From a phage, in sequence record PX068455.1: a stretch of 64,000 nt of DNA; one strand, given 5' to 3'. The first letter of the stretch is position 1; every line of letters starts with the position of its first letter. Of the stretch, positions 11,968 through 18,571 are shown one piece after another. The translations under genes and the position numbers were made by a program. The notes beneath the pieces were generated by a model, which was given only the letters and a program-made list of their open reading frames with translations, had not been told where the DNA came from and did not search any database.

Positions 11968-12320
11968 GATTTTTTATCCTCTCTGTTAATTGGTGTGGTG
12001 TTGTTCACCTTGCGAGGATAAGAATAACAATAACTGTACGAGCTGTCAACCATTAGTTAGAATTATTTTTTTTGGGCAGAATTCTCCAGCCGCCGCCCCT
12101 ACCAGGTTAACCATCGTTTTTTCGTACTCTTCTTTATGTTCCAACGCTCCCGCCATAGCCTTTTCAACCAGGGCGATAGCCTCAGCGTCATTAATCGCTA
12201 CATTTCCAGGGGATCAAATTACCTTTCATTTTTGTACCTCCTCTTCAATTGTTACCTGCCCTATAGCATAGGCCTACCAGGTTTGCAAGCTTTCACTCTC
12301 ACGGCAGGCACCGGTGACGG

Positions 12321-12372
12321 GGGAGACAACCACCGGGGATGGGCGCTGCATAAAATGAGAACGGTTATCATT
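12321..12372 (+). repeat. Bipartite repeat unit A: core GGGAGACAACCACCGGG plus GAGAACGGTTATCATT
   Basis: Read directly; core sits inside palindrome CCGGTG..CACCGG; gene-free region. Confidence 0.5.
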
Positions 12373-12454
12373 ATCATTTAAAAATTTATGCAAAAAATCC
12401 TTGCTTTCTTTGTCCTGTGTGATACTATAATAACAAGCCGGGGCAACAGGGGCC

Positions 12455-12508
12455 GGGAGACAATCACCGGGGGTGCCCGTTATTCTGCAAACGAGAATGA
12501 TTATCATT
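12455..12508 (+). repeat. Bipartite repeat unit B: core GGGAGACAATCACCGGG plus GAGAATGATTATCATT
   Basis: Second copy ~134 bp after unit A with the same ~20-bp core-to-module spacing. Confidence 0.5.
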
Positions 12509-12638
12509 CAAAATTCTAAATGAGAACTTTTCGCATTTCATAAATTTAGTTAGCATGCTAATTACCTACCGTGACAATTCTATATAAAATAATACCTCCT
12601 TAAATATTTCCATATACAAATTTTAAAAATCCATTTCC

Positions 12639-12802
12639 GAAAACGAAAAATCGATTTCGTCCCCAAAAATTTCAGGTCGAGCTCCGGAACGATTTCCAGA
12701 AAATCTGATTCAGAAAACGAAAAACAGATCGAGTACTAAGAAATTTATCGAGAAAAATTTTCAGAAAATTCAATCTTTGAAACGAAAAACAGATCGAGTA
12801 CT
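12639..12802. repeat. Iteron-like direct repeats ACGAAAAACAGATCGAGTACT
   Basis: Two exact 21-bp copies (~12717 and ~12782) plus a partial copy (~12639), in AT-rich non-coding DNA. Confidence 0.55.
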
Positions 12803-13040
12803 GAGAGAGATGTATCAAAACCTACTGAGAATAATGGGCTTATTGTTATAAAAGGTCAAAGGTAAGCTGGGAAAGTTCTGGTAGAAGGGTGAGGGTATGT
12901 GCGGAAAATCTGGAATAGTAACTTAAAGTACGGTGCGAACGATAGAATGAGCAGCACATCTTATCGCGCCTGTCTTGAAAAATCCATTTTAGTTTTCGAT
13001 CCATTTTCTGATTTTCTAAGAATTTTAAAATATCCGGCCA

Positions 13041-13443: not shown

Positions 13444-13643
13444 TTGTCATCCCCTTTCTTACGGATATAGATGTGAGAGCCTGCTTGTACATAAATTTCC
13501 AGACCATCTTCTGCAAAGATGTGGAATACACGGTCGCCTTCGTATTCAATACGGGATATCTTCATAACGGTCTTCCCACCCGGAATGCGGATCTCATCAC
13601 CCACAGCAATGTTCCATGCAGATTTAAGCTTAAACATCTGCAC
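13440..13643 (-). CDS. hypothetical protein (67 aa)
   Basis: ORF track; ATGA overlap with downstream gene. Confidence 0.45.
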   Translation of the reverse strand: MQMFKLKSAWNIAVGDEIRIPGGKTVMKISRIEYEGDRVFHIFAEDGLEIYVQAGSHIYIRKKGDDK

Positions 13644-13875
13644 CCTCCTTTGGGAGCTCTAACTCTGGCATAGCCATATACGCCACAACAGGGTTGTAAT
13701 CAAAGTAGAAATGACCGTTAATTATCCCAGTTTTGTGGGCATAGTCACCAGATCCTGCAAGAACAATCTCGCAAACTCCGAAATCCACCTTGCCATTCTC
13801 ATCTGCCATGGCTACAATATACTTTCCTAGAGGCATGTTTTTAACGCCGTCTACAAATGTCCACCCTTTGTTCAT
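13630..13875 (-). CDS. hypothetical protein (81 aa)
   Basis: ORF track. Confidence 0.45.
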   Translation of the reverse strand: MNKGWTFVDGVKNMPLGKYIVAMADENGKVDFGVCEIVLAGSGDYAHKTGIINGHFYFDYNPVVAYMAMPELELPKEGADV

Positions 13876-13895
13876 ACTTTATCTCCTGCACTTTC

Positions 13896-14228
13896 TTAAG
13901 GTAACCAGTAAACAATTTCGCCTTTCAGTTCCATGTCGTTACCGACATAGATTTTCCAGCCATCCATTTTAGCCACTGCAGGAGTGAAGTCCGTAGAACC
14001 ACTAACCTCTTTCCAAGTCCCGTAGTCAGGTTGCCAGATATAGAATCCACCTTCCTTGTCCCATGCTCCATATACCACATCGAGCAGGTTGCCCATTGCA
14101 ACAATAGTAGGCCGTGGGAATAATACATCTACAGATGCGCCACAATTTCGGGTAGATTTTAAATTACAATCCCAAAAGATGTCTGCCAGTGTGGCGGCGA
14201 TAGCTTTACGTCTTTCTAATGTTACCAT
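13896..14228 (-). CDS. hypothetical protein (110 aa)
   Basis: ORF track. Confidence 0.5.
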   Translation of the reverse strand: MVTLERRKAIAATLADIFWDCNLKSTRNCGASVDVLFPRPTIVAMGNLLDVVYGAWDKEGGFYIWQPDYGTWKEVSGSTDFTPAVAKMDGWKIYVGNDMELKGEIVYWLP

Positions 14229-14238
14229 GGTACGATAC

Positions 14239-14430
14239 TCACTTGTTGTTAAGAAGTTCTAAAACTTTCTGTTTTACTTTATCAAGGTCTGTTGATTCAA
14301 AAACTGTGCGATATCCCCAACTTTGCCCATAGGAATGACTGCAATCCCCGTAACACCATTGCTCAACTTGATAGTATTCAAGGAATGGGTGCTGTCTAAC
14401 TATGATGCCGTCTCGATTAAAAATTACCAT
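14239..14430 (-). CDS. hypothetical protein (63 aa)
   Basis: ORF track. Confidence 0.4.
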   Translation of the reverse strand: MVIFNRDGIIVRQHPFLEYYQVEQWCYGDCSHSYGQSWGYRTVFESTDLDKVKQKVLELLNNK

Positions 14431-14493
14431 AATTTATCCCTCTCTGCTAGTCTATGTTTGTATTATATACTGCAGTTTTCAGATGTCAACCTT

Positions 14494-14688
14494 TTACAGG
14501 TTACTCCAGTATAATCGGCATTTGCATTTTGGGCAATGAGGTTCTTTTATGTAGTAACCATCAGTCTTTGGAACACTTTTTGGTGCAGTTTTAAGATTGT
14601 ACCGAGTAAAGCACCGGAAGCAGGTTACCTCTCCTACCTGTTGATCGTTTATCCACTCACCAGAGTAAAGCTCTTTCTTGTTTCTCAT
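14494..14688 (-). CDS. zinc-ribbon-like small protein (64 aa)
   Basis: ORF 14494..14745 trimmed to ATG with SD GGGAGA; CxxC..(27)..CxxC pattern. Confidence 0.45.
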   Translation of the reverse strand: MRNKKELYSGEWINDQQVGEVTCFRCFTRYNLKTAPKSVPKTDGYYIKEPHCPKCKCRLYWSNL

Positions 14689-14690
14689 AA

Positions 14691-14885
14691 TTATCTCCCT
14701 AGTCCTCTGCAATCTTCTACCAGAATCTCCAGCCAGAAAGCACACGGGAACACTTTGAGGATTGAATCTTTACTCGGCTCGGAAGTTCTTTTTCCATAGG
14801 GCAGGTAGAAATACCCTCCTGCAGATTCAAACATGGCTCCTTCTGTTGTATCTATCACAGCTAGAATTAGGATTTTAGTCTCCAT
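14691..14885 (-). CDS. hypothetical protein (64 aa)
   Basis: ORF track; abuts downstream gene. Confidence 0.4.
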   Translation of the reverse strand: METKILILAVIDTTEGAMFESAGGYFYLPYGKRTSEPSKDSILKVFPCAFWLEILVEDCRGLGR

Positions 14886-14939
14886 AGTGCTCCCCTGTCT
14901 TAATCGTTGTGGTGACTATACCACCTTAAAATATAGCTG

Positions 14940-15398
14940 TCAACACCCTTTGTACTCCACCACGATAATATCTATATCAAAAGTGGCAAGGTTAATAATG
15001 TCCTCTACATGTTCCCACTTCAAACCGCCTATGCCGCACCCGATCTTAGGGATGTAGAATGGTAAAATCGACCCCTCAAATACTTCATTGACTCGCTCAA
15101 ATCCTTTCAGTATTGAGAAATATTCAGCATTAGGTCCTGGATAGAACTGAGTATACAGATTTATTCCGTAGACAATACCTCTCGGAGATAAGTGCTCCCA
15201 ACGGGAGAACGCGCCCAGTTTACTTAGGCAACCGTGCATAGTCATTTTATCAGCTTCCAATGCTTGAGGGAATTCACGAGCAATCTGCTTTGCTACACCC
15301 TTCCCCATTGTGTGGAAGCAGTTACAACCGTGGATCAGGTGACCAGCACCGCTCTTAAAAAGGGAGATTAAATCTCCCTCTACAGTATCAATAATCAC
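14940..15398 (-). CDS. macro-domain (ADP-ribose-binding/processing) protein
   Basis: VEGDLISL..GAGHLIHGCNCFHTMGKGVAKQIAREFP resembles macro-domain signature; GTG start with SD AGGAG chosen, 11-nt overlap with upstream gene. Confidence 0.55.
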   Translation of the reverse strand: MIIDTVEGDLISLFKSGAGHLIHGCNCFHTMGKGVAKQIAREFPQALEADKMTMHGCLSKLGAFSRWEHLSPRGIVYGINLYTQFYPGPNAEYFSILKGFERVNEVFEGSILPFYIPKIGCGIGGLKWEHVEDIINLATFDIDIIVVEYKGC

Positions 15399-15813
15399 GA
15401 TATTCCAGCTCCTCTTCCACAATTTCAAAAAACTCAGTCCAGCACTGCGGCATATTGGAGTTACCGAAGTGGCTTTCATAGTAAAGGTTTTTACCGCTCG
15501 GAAGATAGAAATCTGTTACCTCATAAAATCCACAATCGTCGCACTCTCCCTCTTCAAACTTGGCCTTAATCTTAATACCAAGGAAGGTGAAAAGTTTATG
15601 GATATCTTCGGTCTCGAACTCCCAACTAATGTTGTTTTCCGCATCGGTGTAAAACTGGATCAGTAGGCCATCATCCATTTTTCCAAAATATTCTGTGAAG
15701 TAGCTCCCTTCCCAGAAGTCTTTGTGACAAATAATATCCATGCGCTTGCCCATAATAAAGGTGTGGGCGTTTCGTGCATCGTCACGAATCAGTTTTGGCA
15801 TTTCATAAATCAT
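15388..15813 (-). CDS. hypothetical protein (141 aa)
   Basis: ORF track. Confidence 0.5.
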   Translation of the reverse strand: MIYEMPKLIRDDARNAHTFIMGKRMDIICHKDFWEGSYFTEYFGKMDDGLLIQFYTDAENNISWEFETEDIHKLFTFLGIKIKAKFEEGECDDCGFYEVTDFYLPSGKNLYYESHFGNSNMPQCWTEFFEIVEEELEYRDY

Positions 15814-15878
15814 CGTAGTTCTCCAGGATCAATAGGTGGTGCTACAGGAAGATCATAAAACATGGCGATCACATTCTC

Positions 15879-16076
15879 TTACGCAGGAATTGCTTCAAAC
15901 AGGCCGTTATCGATACCATCTTTCAAGTAAAGATTATACTCTATGTCGGTATCTGTGTAAAGGGCAGCATCCAGCATTCTATCTGTGAGTCCATCCATTG
16001 GGTGGAGAAACCACCACCCACGCCAGTCAAAGTAACAACCTGGTGCATCTTCTCTCACACGGATTCGATAAATCAT
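15879..16076 (-). CDS. hypothetical protein (65 aa)
   Basis: ORF track. Confidence 0.4.
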   Translation of the reverse strand: MIYRIRVREDAPGCYFDWRGWWFLHPMDGLTDRMLDAALYTDTDIEYNLYLKDGIDNGLFEAIPA

Positions 16077-16172
16077 GGGCAGTGGCCTCCTGTTAGTTAC
16101 ACATCCCAGTTTTCTTCGTTCATCACATCCTCCAGCTCTACAAGGTTATAATTGCACACCTTACAACCTGTG

Positions 16173-16589
16173 TCAACAGAAAACTTCAACAAATTCTTCC
16201 ACAGTTTTAATGTCGTGGGAAAAAGGTTTACGGCTATAACGAGCAATAGCACTGTCAACCACCGCCCGGTACTCCAAATCTTCAGAATATTTCATGAAGC
16301 ATTGCAATGTCTCTGGACAGATAGCCAGATAGCTCCACCACCCCTCTTCAGATTGGTAGTCAAATCCCATACTCTCTAGCCACGAAGCGTATACACCTGC
16401 ACCTTCCAGCCAGTGAGTATTTTCATCAAGGAACTTGTTCACAGTCATGTGAGCTTCTAAGCATTTATCCAACTCTTTTCCGTTAACCAGCCACGCACTG
16501 ACAGTGGCGCATCCAAGGTCCACAGATTGGGTTGATAGATTGTATTGGTCATAGTTCTCAGGTTTAACAATGATATCTTCTAATGTCAT
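16173..16589 (-). CDS. hypothetical protein (138 aa)
   Basis: ORF track; follows GAAA-tetraloop terminator; SD AGAGAGGA. Confidence 0.5.
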   Translation of the reverse strand: MTLEDIIVKPENYDQYNLSTQSVDLGCATVSAWLVNGKELDKCLEAHMTVNKFLDENTHWLEGAGVYASWLESMGFDYQSEEGWWSYLAICPETLQCFMKYSEDLEYRAVVDSAIARYSRKPFSHDIKTVEEFVEVFC

Positions 16590-16604
16590 TTTTCAGTCCT
16601 CTCT

Positions 16605-16636
16605 ATACAAAAATGCCCCACCCTTTCGGGTAGGGC
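16605..16636 (-). terminator. Rho-independent terminator with GAAA tetraloop
   Basis: GCCCTACCC-GAAA-GGGTGGGGC followed by ATTTTTG on minus strand; near-identical element near 26774. Confidence 0.55.
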
Positions 16637-16651
16637 TATGTTAACTAGATG

Positions 16652-17878
16652 TTAAAAAGGTATGTCATCATCAAAGGCGTACTGTGCCGGATTCTGATCC
16701 ATCGGGTCGTCTTCCGCATCATCTACAGGAGGAGCGTCTACAGTGTTTTGCTGTGGGGCGGCTTCCTGTTTGGCAGCTTGAGGCTCTTGATGGTCAGTGG
16801 CTCCAGCACCGTTCTTGATCCAATCATACAACGGTTCAGCAAGATTAGTCAAGACATCTTTTGCCTCTGCAGTAATTGCTACTGCAAAATCATCAACTTT
16901 CGTTTTCTTGTCAATACGGCGACAAGCGTTCAATACCGCATTACCAACACTGGCACCTACTTCATCTTCAGTTCGGTTAGTGGCTTGAGCGTACTCTTTC
17001 TTAAGCTCGATGGTGACCACGTGCAGTGTTTTAGCCACATCTAAAGGGCTGTCAATCTTAAACCCGCGATCCAGGATGATCTGCAATGCATTGATACTGT
17101 GCCCTGTCTCTACACCGATGGGGTCGTAAGAGGATTTACGCTTACCACCAGAACCTTGTGTACCGTTCTCTGCTTTAGGCGGGTAGGCCTTGAAGCCGCT
17201 GATAATATTCCCGGTGTCTTTGTCAACAATAGCTGCAACACGACCGCCAACCACCAGGTCTTTAAGCTGCTCATCAGAGACAACCATAGCACCTTCACCA
17301 ATCTTGTGATCATTGACAGTAACCACGTTGCCAACAATCTGAGTCACATCACCATAGATGCGTAAAACGTCCTGATTGGCATTCTGCTGAGGTTTCTGCT
17401 TCTGGCCTTGTGATTGTGTGCCTTGTTGCTGTTTTTGTTGCTGTGGAGCTGCTGGAGCCTCTCCTGCCCCCAACTTAACCATTTTAGCCAGTGAGCCTTT
17501 GTAGTAGGTCTTGCCGTTATGCTCGTTTGCCTTCAAAGGGATATTTACGATCCATCCTGGCGTTACGGTTTCCCACTTGTCGTCAATTTTAACAGAGACG
17601 GAGTCTTGATGACCAGGCTTAAGCAGCTTATCACCCATACTGATCCAAACTTCTTCACCACCTTGGAGCAGGTTATCAGAGGAGTCCAGTTCAGAAATCA
17701 GTAAAGAGATGGTGTGGCTGGATTCAATTTTCTTACCTTGCCACACAGTGGTTTTAATACCTGTTGTAGGATCAGCACCTTTAATGGGCTTGATGCTGAC
17801 ACGTTTAATCATACCGTGAGCCAGTAAAACAGTTTCACGCGGATTCATCGGGTTGGCAAATTGTTGAATAACGCTCAT
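16652..17878 (-). CDS. ssDNA-binding-like protein with SSB-type acidic C-terminal tail (408 aa)
   Basis: C-terminus ...AFDDDIPF; Gln-rich linker QQQKQQQGTQSQGQKQKPQQ; ATG after SD AAGGAGA overlapping upstream stop (TAATG). Confidence 0.5.
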   Translation of the reverse strand: MSVIQQFANPMNPRETVLLAHGMIKRVSIKPIKGADPTTGIKTTVWQGKKIESSHTISLLISELDSSDNLLQGGEEVWISMGDKLLKPGHQDSVSVKIDDKWETVTPGWIVNIPLKANEHNGKTYYKGSLAKMVKLGAGEAPAAPQQQKQQQGTQSQGQKQKPQQNANQDVLRIYGDVTQIVGNVVTVNDHKIGEGAMVVSDEQLKDLVVGGRVAAIVDKDTGNIISGFKAYPPKAENGTQGSGGKRKSSYDPIGVETGHSINALQIILDRGFKIDSPLDVAKTLHVVTIELKKEYAQATNRTEDEVGASVGNAVLNACRRIDKKTKVDDFAVAITAEAKDVLTNLAEPLYDWIKNGAGATDHQEPQAAKQEAAPQQNTVDAPPVDDAEDDPMDQNPAQYAFDDDIPF

Positions 17879-18288
17879 TATTTGTCTCCTTGTTCTTCGT
17901 TGGTGTTTGCTGTGTGTGCAAACCCTGCTTGAATTAATTTGTCCTGCACTTGAGCCAACAGGCCCATTGCAAAACTTGTCGTCCCAGAAAGGGCCATTAG
18001 CATATCTCGTTGCTGAGCTACCCAACCTAAGGCATAATCTAAACGACGATATTTTTCTTCTTCGCGCAGAGCCTGAAATAACTGTTCAGCCTCTGGTTGT
18101 TGTGTGAGCTCCTGAAGTCTTCCCATAAAAGAAGAAAGTACCAGCAGAAGAGACACTTGATCTTTGCTTAACCCTAAGAAAAATTCTTGAGGTTGTTCTT
18201 GCTCGTTCATCGCAACCGACGCTTGATCGTTCATTTGTTCCATTGTGGAATCTCCGATTTTATTTGAACAACATAAAGGAGACACCAT
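17878..18288 (-). CDS. hypothetical protein (136 aa)
   Basis: ORF track; SD AGGAGA before ATG. Confidence 0.5.
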   Translation of the reverse strand: MVSPLCCSNKIGDSTMEQMNDQASVAMNEQEQPQEFFLGLSKDQVSLLLVLSSFMGRLQELTQQPEAEQLFQALREEEKYRRLDYALGWVAQQRDMLMALSGTTSFAMGLLAQVQDKLIQAGFAHTANTNEEQGDK

Positions 18289-18325
18289 TTTAGCATCTCC
18301 TTCTGTAAATTACAACAGCTATTTA

Positions 18326-18571
18326 TTAGCCAATTACTTCGAAAGTGCCCCAACTCCCGTTCAGCAGGCAGGTGATCGGATCACCATCATCGTCAATTAT
18401 TTCAAAGTTTTCAACATCCAGAATATGGTCATCGAACACAATACTTTCGTCACCACCACCAGAAACAACAGTGTATTCCTTACCTTGAGTCAAGTTTTGA
18501 CACCCTTTGCCACCAAAACCTACTTCAACACAACGTACTTTCTGTCCTGCGCGAGCAACTACTTCAGCCAT
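18326..18571 (-). CDS. small DDxGD-motif protein, paralogue family member 1
   Basis: Contains IDDDGDPITC; see tandem family finding. Confidence 0.5.
   Translation of the reverse strand: MAEVVARAGQKVRCVEVGFGGKGCQNLTQGKEYTVVSGGGDESIVFDDHILDVENFEIIDDDGDPITCLLNGSWGTFEVIG

Follow-up and report, generated by a model that had tools for sequence, protein, structure and literature searches.

What a stand-alone macrodomain does for a large phage of Escherichia coli is the question raised by a short gene on the minus strand of the 64,000-nucleotide stretch of phage DNA analysed here (the window). The whole window is 100% identical to sequence of the Vequintavirus phages ECP2303 and ECP2309, which are rV5-like phages of E. 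coli. The gene already carries the annotation ‘macro domain protein’ in both, and with the family known the gene itself is unsurprising. It is real and intact. The minus-strand open reading frame matches 14940-15398 exactly, with its stop codon at 14940-14942, and since pairwise dN/dS among its Vequintavirus orthologues is 0.09-0.18 it is under purifying selection. The translation includes GDLISL...HLIHGCNCFHTMGKGVAKQIAREFP, the string that a preliminary description, made from the letters of the sequence, had quoted as a macro-domain hallmark. The gene and the elements at and ahead of its start are as follows, in window positions.

14940..15398, minus strand: macro-domain coding sequence, 152 amino acids, stop included (open reading frame and translation; GenBank WXX18279.1, ‘macro domain protein’, of the identical phage ECP2309; Pfam, PHROG and AlphaFold2)
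15388..15398, minus strand: 11-nucleotide overlap, holding the GTG start codon (15396-15398), with the 3′ end of the upstream gene (direct sequence reading)
15409..15414, minus strand: Shine-Dalgarno-like GAGGAG within the upstream gene, with a 10-nucleotide spacer to the GTG (consensus resemblance only)
15388..15813, minus strand: upstream gene for a protein of 141 amino acids and unknown function, PHROG 8157, overlapping the macro-gene start (without a Pfam, NCBIfam or PADLOC match)
15933..15961, minus strand: sigma-70-like promoter candidate, TTTACA-17-TATAAT, 11 of 12 consensus positions (consensus scan only), upstream of the gene pair that runs from 15813 to 14940

That the macro gene starts at the GTG at 15396-15398, which the preliminary description had placed in an overlap with the upstream gene, is favoured on several counts. 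Comparison of upstream regions shows both the GTG and the GAGGAG to be kept in Bas50 and Bas55, and two more distant relatives, here termed L009 and L010, have an ATG at the matching codon. The N-termini of Tk.4 of phage T4 and of some 60 homologues align at the GTG, beginning MI(I/V)..., and the GenBank coordinates of the gene agree with it. The longest mechanical open reading frame, of 179 amino acids from an ATG at 15479, was rejected because its overlap with the upstream gene would be 92 nucleotides long and its extension is present in no homologue. The 11-nucleotide overlap suggests translational coupling of the macro gene to the upstream gene. The two are probably co-transcribed, and the sequence at 15933..15961 is a candidate for an early promoter serving both, in a region where the consensus scan returns 21 promoter-like sites against 9.6 expected. 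The upstream gene is nevertheless not a conserved partner: in L009 its homologue lies beyond the macro gene, 1.5 kb downstream of it. The neighbours of the macro gene belong to phage PHROGs of unknown function, and the window gave no match in scans for Rfam families and tRNA genes.

The product is a macrodomain by a match far beyond chance. The Pfam Macro profile (PF01661) is covered from end to end (1-118 of 118) at 32 bits, the gathering score being 22 (E=1.3e-7), and PHROG 335 is matched with E=1.6e-60. AlphaFold2 models the 152-residue protein with a pLDDT of 96.5 and a pTM of 0.91, and the model has the predicted three-layer alpha/beta/alpha macro fold together with two glycine-rich loops, MGKGVA and IGCGIGG. 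With this model Foldseek returns solved macrodomains at a probability of 1.00, those at the top being TARG1 (the best), the DarG proteins of Thermus aquaticus (Taq) and Mycobacterium tuberculosis (Mtb), and Poa1p, with TM scores of 0.71-0.79; the TARG1, DarG and Poa1p structures are ADP-ribose-bound. In BFVD the closest match is tk.4 from Acinetobacter phage 133, with a TM score of 0.89. The macro-domain assignment that had been made for 14940-15398 is borne out by the profile search, the predicted structure and public annotation.

The subfamily is another matter. The kinship earlier drawn with the VNAAN..GGGV macrodomains of viruses (MacroD/Mac1) was loose and named the wrong branch. The loops of the window protein read HGCNC and MGKGVA, not N-A-A-N and G-G-G-V, and both the profile comparison and the fold ranking go against that class: the family profile reaches coronavirus Mac1 with E about 3e-3 only, while it reaches the TARG1/SCO6735 class at about 1e-16, and viral macro domains are placed below position 26 in the Foldseek ranking. 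Searches of the PDB have as their top match the Mtb DarG macrodomain when a single sequence is used, and SCO6735 and BT1257 (E about 1e-16) when a profile is used. The protein is a small stand-alone macrodomain of the TARG1/DarG/Poa1p (ALC1-like) class and is predicted to be catalytically competent.

Three segments carry the residues expected, from alignments, to form its active site.

15291..15332, minus strand: residues 23-36, HGCNCFHTMGKGVA, substrate-binding loop with His23 and Asn26 (alignments)
15147..15149, minus strand: CAG codon of Gln84, at the position of DarG K80, TARG1 K84 and SCO6735 Gln85 (HMMER and MAFFT alignments)
15024..15050, minus strand: residues 117-125, PKIGCGIGG, glycine-rich diphosphate-binding loop (alignments)

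All 12 signature residues, which are invariant or nearly so in family alignments of 60 and 84 sequences, are present in the window protein (His23, Asn26, Met31, Gly34, Ala36, Asp50, Asn80, Tyr82, Gln84, Pro117, Gly120 and Gly122). Asn26, Met31, Gly34, Ala36, Pro117 and Gly122 are found in every one of the 84 family members, Gly120 in 83 and His23 in 80; position 84 is Gln in 82, the two others having one natural Lys and one Glu. His23 and Asn26 align with His24 and Asn27 of SCO6735 and with His23 and Asn26 of Poa1p, and Asn26 also with Asn22 of DarG. The PKIGCGIGG loop is typical of TARG1/DarG/Poa1p macrodomains and has Gly for TARG1 Asp125, as in DarG. Strict conservation of Asn26 and Gln84 favours catalysis rather than mere binding.

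DarG models are the sole NCBIfam and PADLOC matches of the window protein, and it is the macro half that they match: NF048014 gives 47 bits where its cut-off asks for 250, and the PADLOC model 52 bits over profile positions 4-141 of 329 only. With the DarG proteins of Thermus and M. tuberculosis the window protein has in common the macro class and fold (TM about 0.75), the loop Asn and the predicted removal of ADP-ribose from thymidine of single-stranded DNA. DarG, in contrast, is about 340 amino acids long with a C-terminal DarT-binding domain, adjoins darT, and has a catalytic lysine, Lys80. Here the DarT-binding domain is absent, the 152-residue protein stopping with the macro domain, and Gln84 replaces Lys80 of Taq and Mtb DarG in HMMER and MAFFT alignments. 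A Pfam search of ten neighbouring open reading frames found no darT or other toxin next to the macro gene, one Zn-binding domain being all that was matched. A true DarG was rejected, as was a DarG split between the macro gene and the upstream gene, whose 141-residue product has no database match and whose pairing with the macro gene is lost in L009. AdfM of the chimalliviruses (PhiKZ gp104) shares the macro class and fold, the conserved substrate-loop Asn and the predicted chemistry but has Lys78 where Gln is found here, scores 138 bits on the DarG model and is 24% identical to the window protein. The two phage proteins named ‘AdfM’, those of T4 and PhiKZ, are of different lineages.

SCO6735 of Streptomyces coelicolor and BT1257, both ALC1-like, have, as here, Gln at the catalytic-lysine position and the loop His and Asn, and they too are orphans without a toxin-binding domain. 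SCO6735 strips thymidine-linked ADP-ribose off DNA and rescues cells from DarT; its Q85A mutant is inactive on T-ADPr DNA and N27S has lost nearly all activity, the His24 mutant being misfolded and hence uninformative (PMC9411070). It differs in being cellular, not viral, in an identity of about 24%, and in having Val25 where the window protein has Gly24. A gap of 3-4 residues lies opposite the mobile loop of SCO6735 and BT1257, and the equivalents of Lys89 and Lys94 are absent. The missing DarG lysine, together with the failure to keep Val25 and the lysine-bearing mobile loop of SCO6735, are features that would count against an eraser of DarT marks. Human TARG1/OARD1 and yeast Poa1p, the top structural matches, have the GDL, MGxGIA and PxIGCG loops in common with the window protein, and H23-x-C25-N26-C27 of Poa1p is matched at the same residue numbers. 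Identity to either is 24-25%; the catalytic dyad of TARG1, Lys84/Asp125, corresponds to Gln84/Gly124 here, and Poa1p has a large insertion and what we take to be a Ser at the position of Gln84.

The window protein is a member of the phage Tk.4 family (PHROG 335), and T4 Tk.4, also named AdfM (anti-DarT factor, macrodomain), is its best-scoring characterised relative, BLASTP aligning the two over their full length (residues 1-150) with 41% identity and E=7e-43, at 126 bits as against 74-83 for proteins of the Adpp type discussed below. Both are stand-alone proteins of some 150 amino acids with HGCNCFHTMG, NLYTQF and IG[CA]GIG motifs and Gln at the DarG-lysine position, and both are encoded in a cluster of early genes, in large lytic myoviruses that infect E. 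coli; T4 tk.4 is dispensable on E. coli K-12, as the window gene probably is too. Insertions are tolerated at 45 of 46 TA sites in T4 tk.4, and at 31 of 31 on K-12 in bas54_0092, the syntenic gene of Bas54; the latter tolerance is what a conditional counter-defence gene predicts. The differences are that T4 belongs to the Straboviridae and the present phage to the Vequintavirinae, that the neighbours are other ones, that here a GTG start appears coupled to an unrelated upstream gene, and that Lys33 stands here where the GxG loop of T4 has Ser. An identity of 41% does not guarantee the same substrate. A neighbour-joining tree sets the window protein beside T4-like Tk.4 proteins with a bootstrap of 7/100, and because of that value the placement was not used in choosing between AdfM and Adpp.

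Transposon screening of T4 on a host carrying DarTG2 gave tk.4 as its one significant gene, a clean tk.4 knockout is DarTG2-sensitive, and among the systems screened in T4 only DarTG2 picked up tk.4; the T4 evidence is genetic only, de-ADP-ribosylation by Tk.4 being the inference of the preprint (bioRxiv 10.1101/2025.11.20.689424). The anti-DarTG2 phenotype is that of T4 Tk.4 only, and the searched text of bioRxiv 10.1101/2025.11.20.689424 reports no Bas54 library on a DarTG2 host. By homology we infer that the window gene encodes a counter-defence hydrolase, early and dispensable, that clears phage DNA of DarT2 marks, a reading that we consider probable on balance. The earlier suggestion that the protein reverses an ADP-ribosylation-based host defence agrees with the T4 genetics. 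Small early genes that have promoters of the host type surround the gene, which is probably expressed early and dispensable on laboratory E. coli. Its product is predicted to bind the ADP-ribose moiety via the HGCNC...MGKGVA and PKIGCGIGG loops and to hydrolyse the bond at C1′′ of the distal ribose, the likeliest substrate being ADP-ribose put on thymidine of single-stranded phage DNA by host DarT2; DarTG2 systems occur in E. coli strains. Catalysis would be via Gln84, Asn26 and His23 as in SCO6735, with Gln positioning the distal ribose and the reaction water-mediated, not by a lysine as in DarG. Removal of the ADP-ribose would restore replication, and the protein may then be an ‘antitoxin-like’ eraser of the orphan kind, the role that has been proposed for T4 Tk.4/AdfM.

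The alternative that survives best is that the protein takes the 1′′-phosphate off ADP-ribose-1′′-phosphate to yield ADP-ribose, in the manner of Adpp and Poa1p, the substrate being made by RES-domain NAD+ phosphorylases (aRES defence) or arising as a side product of NAD+-dependent RNA 2′-phosphate removal. This seems unlikely. Cilsick gp173, 98.7% identical to Adpp of Vibrio phage Gary, matches the window protein with 35% identity (74 bits), and Gary Adpp converts ADPR-1P to ADPR by LC-MS and is needed to defeat aRES (bioRxiv 10.64898/2026.01.28.702374). HGCNC corresponds position by position to HSCNC of Poa1p, itself among the top fold matches, and public labels on homologues include ‘phosphatase’ and ‘A1pp motif’. 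In addition the genome has a cluster of genes for RNA ligase, cREC_REC, Sir2 and metallophosphoesterase that could yield ADP-ribose-phosphate species. That RNA-repair cluster, however, does not adjoin the macro gene but is about 85 kb from it, and similarity to Adpp is below that to Tk.4. Moreover, Adpp is the third gene of the NARP1 operon, lying between Adps and Namat. With two proteins each of Adps and Namat as tblastn queries (E<=1e-5), no match was found in the window or the rest of the ECP2309 genome, and no NARP1 gene, NAMPT-like ones included, is annotated in the 137-kb phage genome. Membership of a NARP1-AP operon is ruled out by the genome-wide absence of Adps and Namat, and that absence removes the rationale for an Adpp role, since without the NARP1 genes production of ADP-ribose would not rebuild NAD+ here.

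Gary Adpp and the window protein nevertheless have much in common: the sequence family, the same Asn and Gln, a Poa1p-like macro fold and, as proposed here, counter-defence at C1′′ of ADP-ribose. No residues distinguishing Adpp from Tk.4 were found, Asn26 and Gln84 being common to both and position 30 (Ser30 in Poa1p) variable, and because Adpp has the same family, Gln and Asn, sequence alone cannot tell eraser from phosphatase. Of the further idea in the preliminary description, that ADP-ribose-derived immune signals might be degraded, the action on an ADP-ribose-derived molecule finds a parallel in the use of ADP-ribose-1′′-phosphate by Gary Adpp; the signal does not, this compound being an NAD+ breakdown product. 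The Tk.4-type family has two experimentally supported jobs, anti-DarTG2 activity in T4 and ADP-ribose-1′′-phosphate phosphatase activity in NARP1 operons, with Gln and not the DarG lysine. It is conceivable, at about the same low level of probability as the phosphatase role, that two macrodomain lineages counter DarT2, a Lys-type copy of DarG in chimalliviruses and the Gln-type Tk.4 in many phages, T4-like and rV5-like ones among them, and that Tk.4 is a general C1′′ eraser acting on DNA marks and ADP-ribose-1′′-phosphate alike. If so, one small protein disarms both DNA ADP-ribosylation and RES-type NAD+ phosphorolysis, and the natural Gln84Lys of L010, a 70%-identical homologue, marks a switch of catalytic style. 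Which activity is needed by a phage that lacks NARP1 would show how far function transfers within the Tk.4 family.

Rather less probable is action on some other ADP-ribose conjugate, whether by erasing or binding it: on protein (Glu/Asp-linked), on RNA (CmdTAC-type mRNA, uracil-linked), or by sequestering a signal or inhibiting a toxin. TARG1 and SCO6735 also cleave Glu/Asp-linked ADP-ribose from protein, and SCO6735 Q85A, though inactive, still blocks DarT through interaction (PMC9411070). Reversal of RNA ADP-ribosylation by macrodomains of the TARG1/DarG type is reported in the literature, and degradation of signals had been suggested earlier for the window protein. But no specific pointer to such substrates exists. 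Of the systems on which T4 was screened, DarTG2 alone brought up tk.4, and the strictly conserved Asn26 and Gln84 argue against simple binding.

Least probable of all is an O-acetyl-ADP-ribose deacetylase, or an eraser working with the Sir2-family enzyme that the phage itself encodes: the sirtuin would deacylate or ADP-ribosylate targets at the expense of NAD+, and O-acyl-ADP-ribose would be removed, or the mark reversed, by the macrodomain, as in bacterial SirTM-macrodomain pairs. A genuine Sir2 (PF02146, 94.5 bits) is encoded in the same genome, TARG1/OARD1, the best Foldseek match, is an O-acyl-ADP-ribose deacylase, and homologues are labelled ‘O-acetyl-ADP-ribose deacetylase’ by JGI, but the two genes are far apart (15.1 and 99.3 kb in the record) on oppositely transcribed arms. 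T4 has the macro gene but is not known to encode a sirtuin, so the Tk.4 family would be independent of a Sir2 partner.

If erasure of DarT2 marks, the preferred reading, is correct, rV5-like phages, components of phage cocktails directed against pathogenic E. coli, would come equipped to escape DarTG2, with a bearing on host-range prediction. The Tk.4-type macro family is widespread: of 50,697 phage records, about 2,800 contain it.

The window comes from an rV5-like myovirus of E. coli, a Vequintavirus, and the 2.5 kb surrounding its macro-domain gene show 100% identity to ECP2303 and ECP2309 and 92-98% identity to many other phages. A minus-strand ORF occupies precisely the interval for which the preliminary description claimed a macro-domain protein, its translation contains the peptide quoted there, and it exactly matches the annotation of ECP2309 (window position = PP464953.1 position - 130).

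14940-15398, minus strand: macro-domain CDS, at the same coordinates in ECP2309 as "macro domain protein", WXX18279.1
15388-15813, minus strand: upstream 141-aa gene, overlapping the macro-gene start by 11 nt

The GTG start and its overlap with the upstream gene, proposed at the same time, are borne out: GTG at 15396-15398 gives the same aligned first residue as T4 Tk.4 and about 60 homologues, it is kept in the related phages Bas50 and Bas55 together with a GAGGAG 10 nt upstream, and remoter relatives have ATG in its place. Judged by these alignments it is the correct start of the macro gene. Because pairwise dN/dS among orthologues is 0.09-0.18, the gene is taken to be selected and functional. 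The domain call (GenBank), the family (PHROGs) and recent experimental functions of two members were already known, and the protein is an uncharacterised member of that known family.

The macro fold itself is confirmed by the Pfam Macro score (32 bits against a gathering threshold of 22 bits, with the full profile covered), by an AlphaFold2 model built from a 60-sequence alignment (mean pLDDT 96.5, pTM 0.91) and by Foldseek ranking against the PDB; the match to PHROG 335 ("phosphatase") is at 1.6e-60. The MacroD/viral domains chosen initially as comparators are, however, of the wrong type. TARG1, the Thermus and M. tuberculosis DarG macrodomains and yeast Poa1p head the Foldseek ranks (TM 0.71-0.79), with alphavirus and coronavirus macro domains far lower, and the family profile reaches 1e-13 to 1e-17 against BT1257, SCO6735, TARG1, DarG and Poa1p and only 3e-3 against coronavirus Mac1. 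These rankings therefore place the protein in the TARG1/DarG/Poa1p (ALC1-like) class and rule out a MacroD/viral type. The protein is not a DarG, at 47 bits on the DarG model, and this exclusion, with the correct subclass, is added here to the known domain call. A macro domain fused to a giant-virus SNF2-family protein (BFVD A0A481YV05, Marseillevirus LCMAC103) has TM 0.94 and 40% identity to the model, equalling phage tk.4 proteins in closeness.

The best-supported reading, which we hold to be slightly better than an even bet, is of an early, dispensable counter-defence hydrolase directed against DarT2 marks. The protein would strip the ADP-ribose that DarT2 puts on thymidines of phage ssDNA, acting like the macro half of DarG with chemistry of the SCO6735 type. 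Relatives occur in 2,810 of 50,697 phage records (tblastn), and the Tequatrovirus match adjoins the vs gene and is T4 tk.4, whose product is 41% identical over the full lengths of both proteins (E=7e-43). A 2025 preprint picked out tk.4 as the one T4 gene with significant conditional essentiality on a host that expresses DarTG2, confirmed the result with a clean knockout, named the gene adfM and proposed that the enzyme erases DarT2 marks (bioRxiv 10.1101/2025.11.20.689424). As to dispensability, bas54_0092 of phage Bas54, a putative orthologue from synteny and length only, has the same length, upstream partner and 11-nt overlap (HIDEN-SEQ supplementary tables). In that transposon-insertion dataset it has insertions at 31/31 TA sites and is classed non-essential on K-12, and T4 tk.4 is likewise tolerant (45/46 sites).

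PhiKZ gp104, also named AdfM, has biochemical support as an eraser of DarT2 marks, from a gel-shift de-ADP-ribosylation assay and a dot blot. Though the name is common to gp104 and T4 Tk.4, gp104 and the window protein represent separate lineages: identity is only 24%, and the DarG model gives 138 bits for gp104 against 47 for the window protein. The active sites also differ. Gln84 of the window protein takes the position of the catalytic lysine (DarG Lys80, TARG1 Lys84) in three independent alignments (HMMER to Mtb DarG, profile to TARG1 and SCO6735, and MAFFT), as does a Gln in T4 Tk.4 and Adpp, whereas PhiKZ AdfM has Lys78. Of 84 family members, 82 have Gln here, one has Lys and one has Glu, and Asn26, Met31, Gly34, Ala36, Asp50, Asn80, Tyr82, Pro117 and Gly122 are invariant. 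SCO6735 and BT1257 share the Gln and also the substrate-loop His and Asn, but Val25 and the lysine-bearing mobile loop of SCO6735 are not conserved in the window protein. The orphan macrodomain SCO6735 removes ADP-ribose linked to thymidine in DNA and shields cells against DarT; this activity is lost in the Q85A mutant and almost lost in N27S, and the mechanism proposed for it is water-mediated (PMC9411070). Since this Gln-type enzyme is active, absence of the DarG lysine is no evidence of inactivity. On sequence grounds the Tk.4 family groups with Gln-type enzymes such as SCO6735, an assignment added here along with that of chimallivirus AdfM as Lys-type. A 70%-identical homologue on a 165-kb phage contig (L010 6001-6456) has Lys at position 84 (NLYTKF), recreating the DarG/TARG1-type residue, and another homologue (L080 2249-2638) has Glu there.

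The main rival, an ADPR-1''-phosphate phosphatase of the Adpp/Poa1p type, is unlikely. Adpp of Vibrio phage Gary is the second characterised relative, a macro protein whose gene has Adps and Namat on either side of it in NARP1 operons; LC-MS showed that it dephosphorylates ADPR-1''-phosphate, and it is required for defeat of aRES, a RES-domain NAD+ phosphorylase defence (bioRxiv 10.64898/2026.01.28.702374). It is 98.7% identical to Cilsick gp173, and macro homologues lie inside such Adps-macro-Namat (NARP1-AP) operons in Vibrio phage Cilsick (L005 3132-6138) and Acinetobacter phage Aci05 (L006 904-4474); both have an RNA ligase gene near the operon. The window protein scores 126 bits against Tk.4 and 74 against Adpp (35% identity to Adpp), and a neighbor-joining tree groups it with T4-like Tk.4 with Adpp basal in the phage family, at a support of 7/100 that is given no weight. 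The phosphatase reading is weakened by a phage without any NAD+ reconstitution pathway: tblastn of the whole ECP2309 genome found no homologues of Adps, Namat or NAMPT. The analysis also brings out the question of an AdfM or an Adpp role for NARP1-less phages. On a T4-like contig (L016 3719-5152) a NAMPT/Namat-like gene, with no Adps match, lies ~1 kb upstream of a Tk.4-type macro gene, possibly a NARP2-type context.

Action on other ADPr conjugates, or non-catalytic binding, is rather improbable, and an O-acyl-ADPR deacylase or an eraser paired with the phage Sir2 is more doubtful still, the Sir2-family gene (PF02146, 94.5 bits) lying far from the macro gene.

PP464953.1 96.9-100.8 kb (L007 8923-12048), outside the window: metallophosphoesterase, RNA ligase, cREC_REC (cyclic-phosphate processing receiver) and Sir2 genes, adjoining

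This cluster resembles a module for RNA repair or NAD+ use, and ADP-ribose derivatives could be among its products. The readings are not mutually exclusive, since in each of them the leaving group would sit at C1'' of the distal ribose.

The macro gene belongs to a long series of small leftward genes without known function, where minus-strand matches to sigma-70-like promoters number 21 against 9.6 expected (window 13500-18500; consensus matches only).

Upstream of the two-gene unit (15813 to 14940), minus strand: sigma-70-like match, 11/12, consensus match only
14943-14915, minus strand: TTGACA-17-TATAGT directly after the macro stop codon, consensus match only
14489-14462, minus strand: perfect promoter match TTGACA-16-TATAAT, consensus match only
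16636-16615: strong terminator-like hairpin
14494-14688, minus strand: 64-aa Phage_zn_bind_2 (PF23903) protein, 250 nt downstream of the macro gene
16652-17878, minus strand: 408-aa protein with a Gln-rich linker and the C-terminus ...YAFDDDIPF (PHROG 4477, function unknown)

The 141-aa protein has no match in Pfam, NCBIfam or PADLOC and in a related phage (L009) its homologue and the macro gene lie apart, so it is not taken as a partner and is rejected as a detached DarT-binding domain. A 78%-identical copy of the Zn-binding protein directly abuts the macro gene at L010 6446-6637, and nine T4-like loci (e.g. L011 7559-7678) have weaker Zn-ribbon matches 0.6-1.7 kb downstream; conserved local order, a small cassette or chance could account for this. 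About 930 nt (12027-12960) are without annotated CDS in ECP2309; scans found no tRNA or Rfam family, and ORFs in the region are all short (the longest 93 aa, 11990-12271, plus; 81 aa, 12136-12381, plus; 77 aa, 12274-12507, minus). The YAFDDDIPF terminus of the 408-aa protein, which has no Pfam match, matches the acidic tip through which E. coli SSB brings in host proteins for replication and repair. The protein is possibly a phage SSB or SSB-tip mimic, and bas54_0087, at the syntenic position in Bas54, is in the essential class (HIDEN-SEQ).
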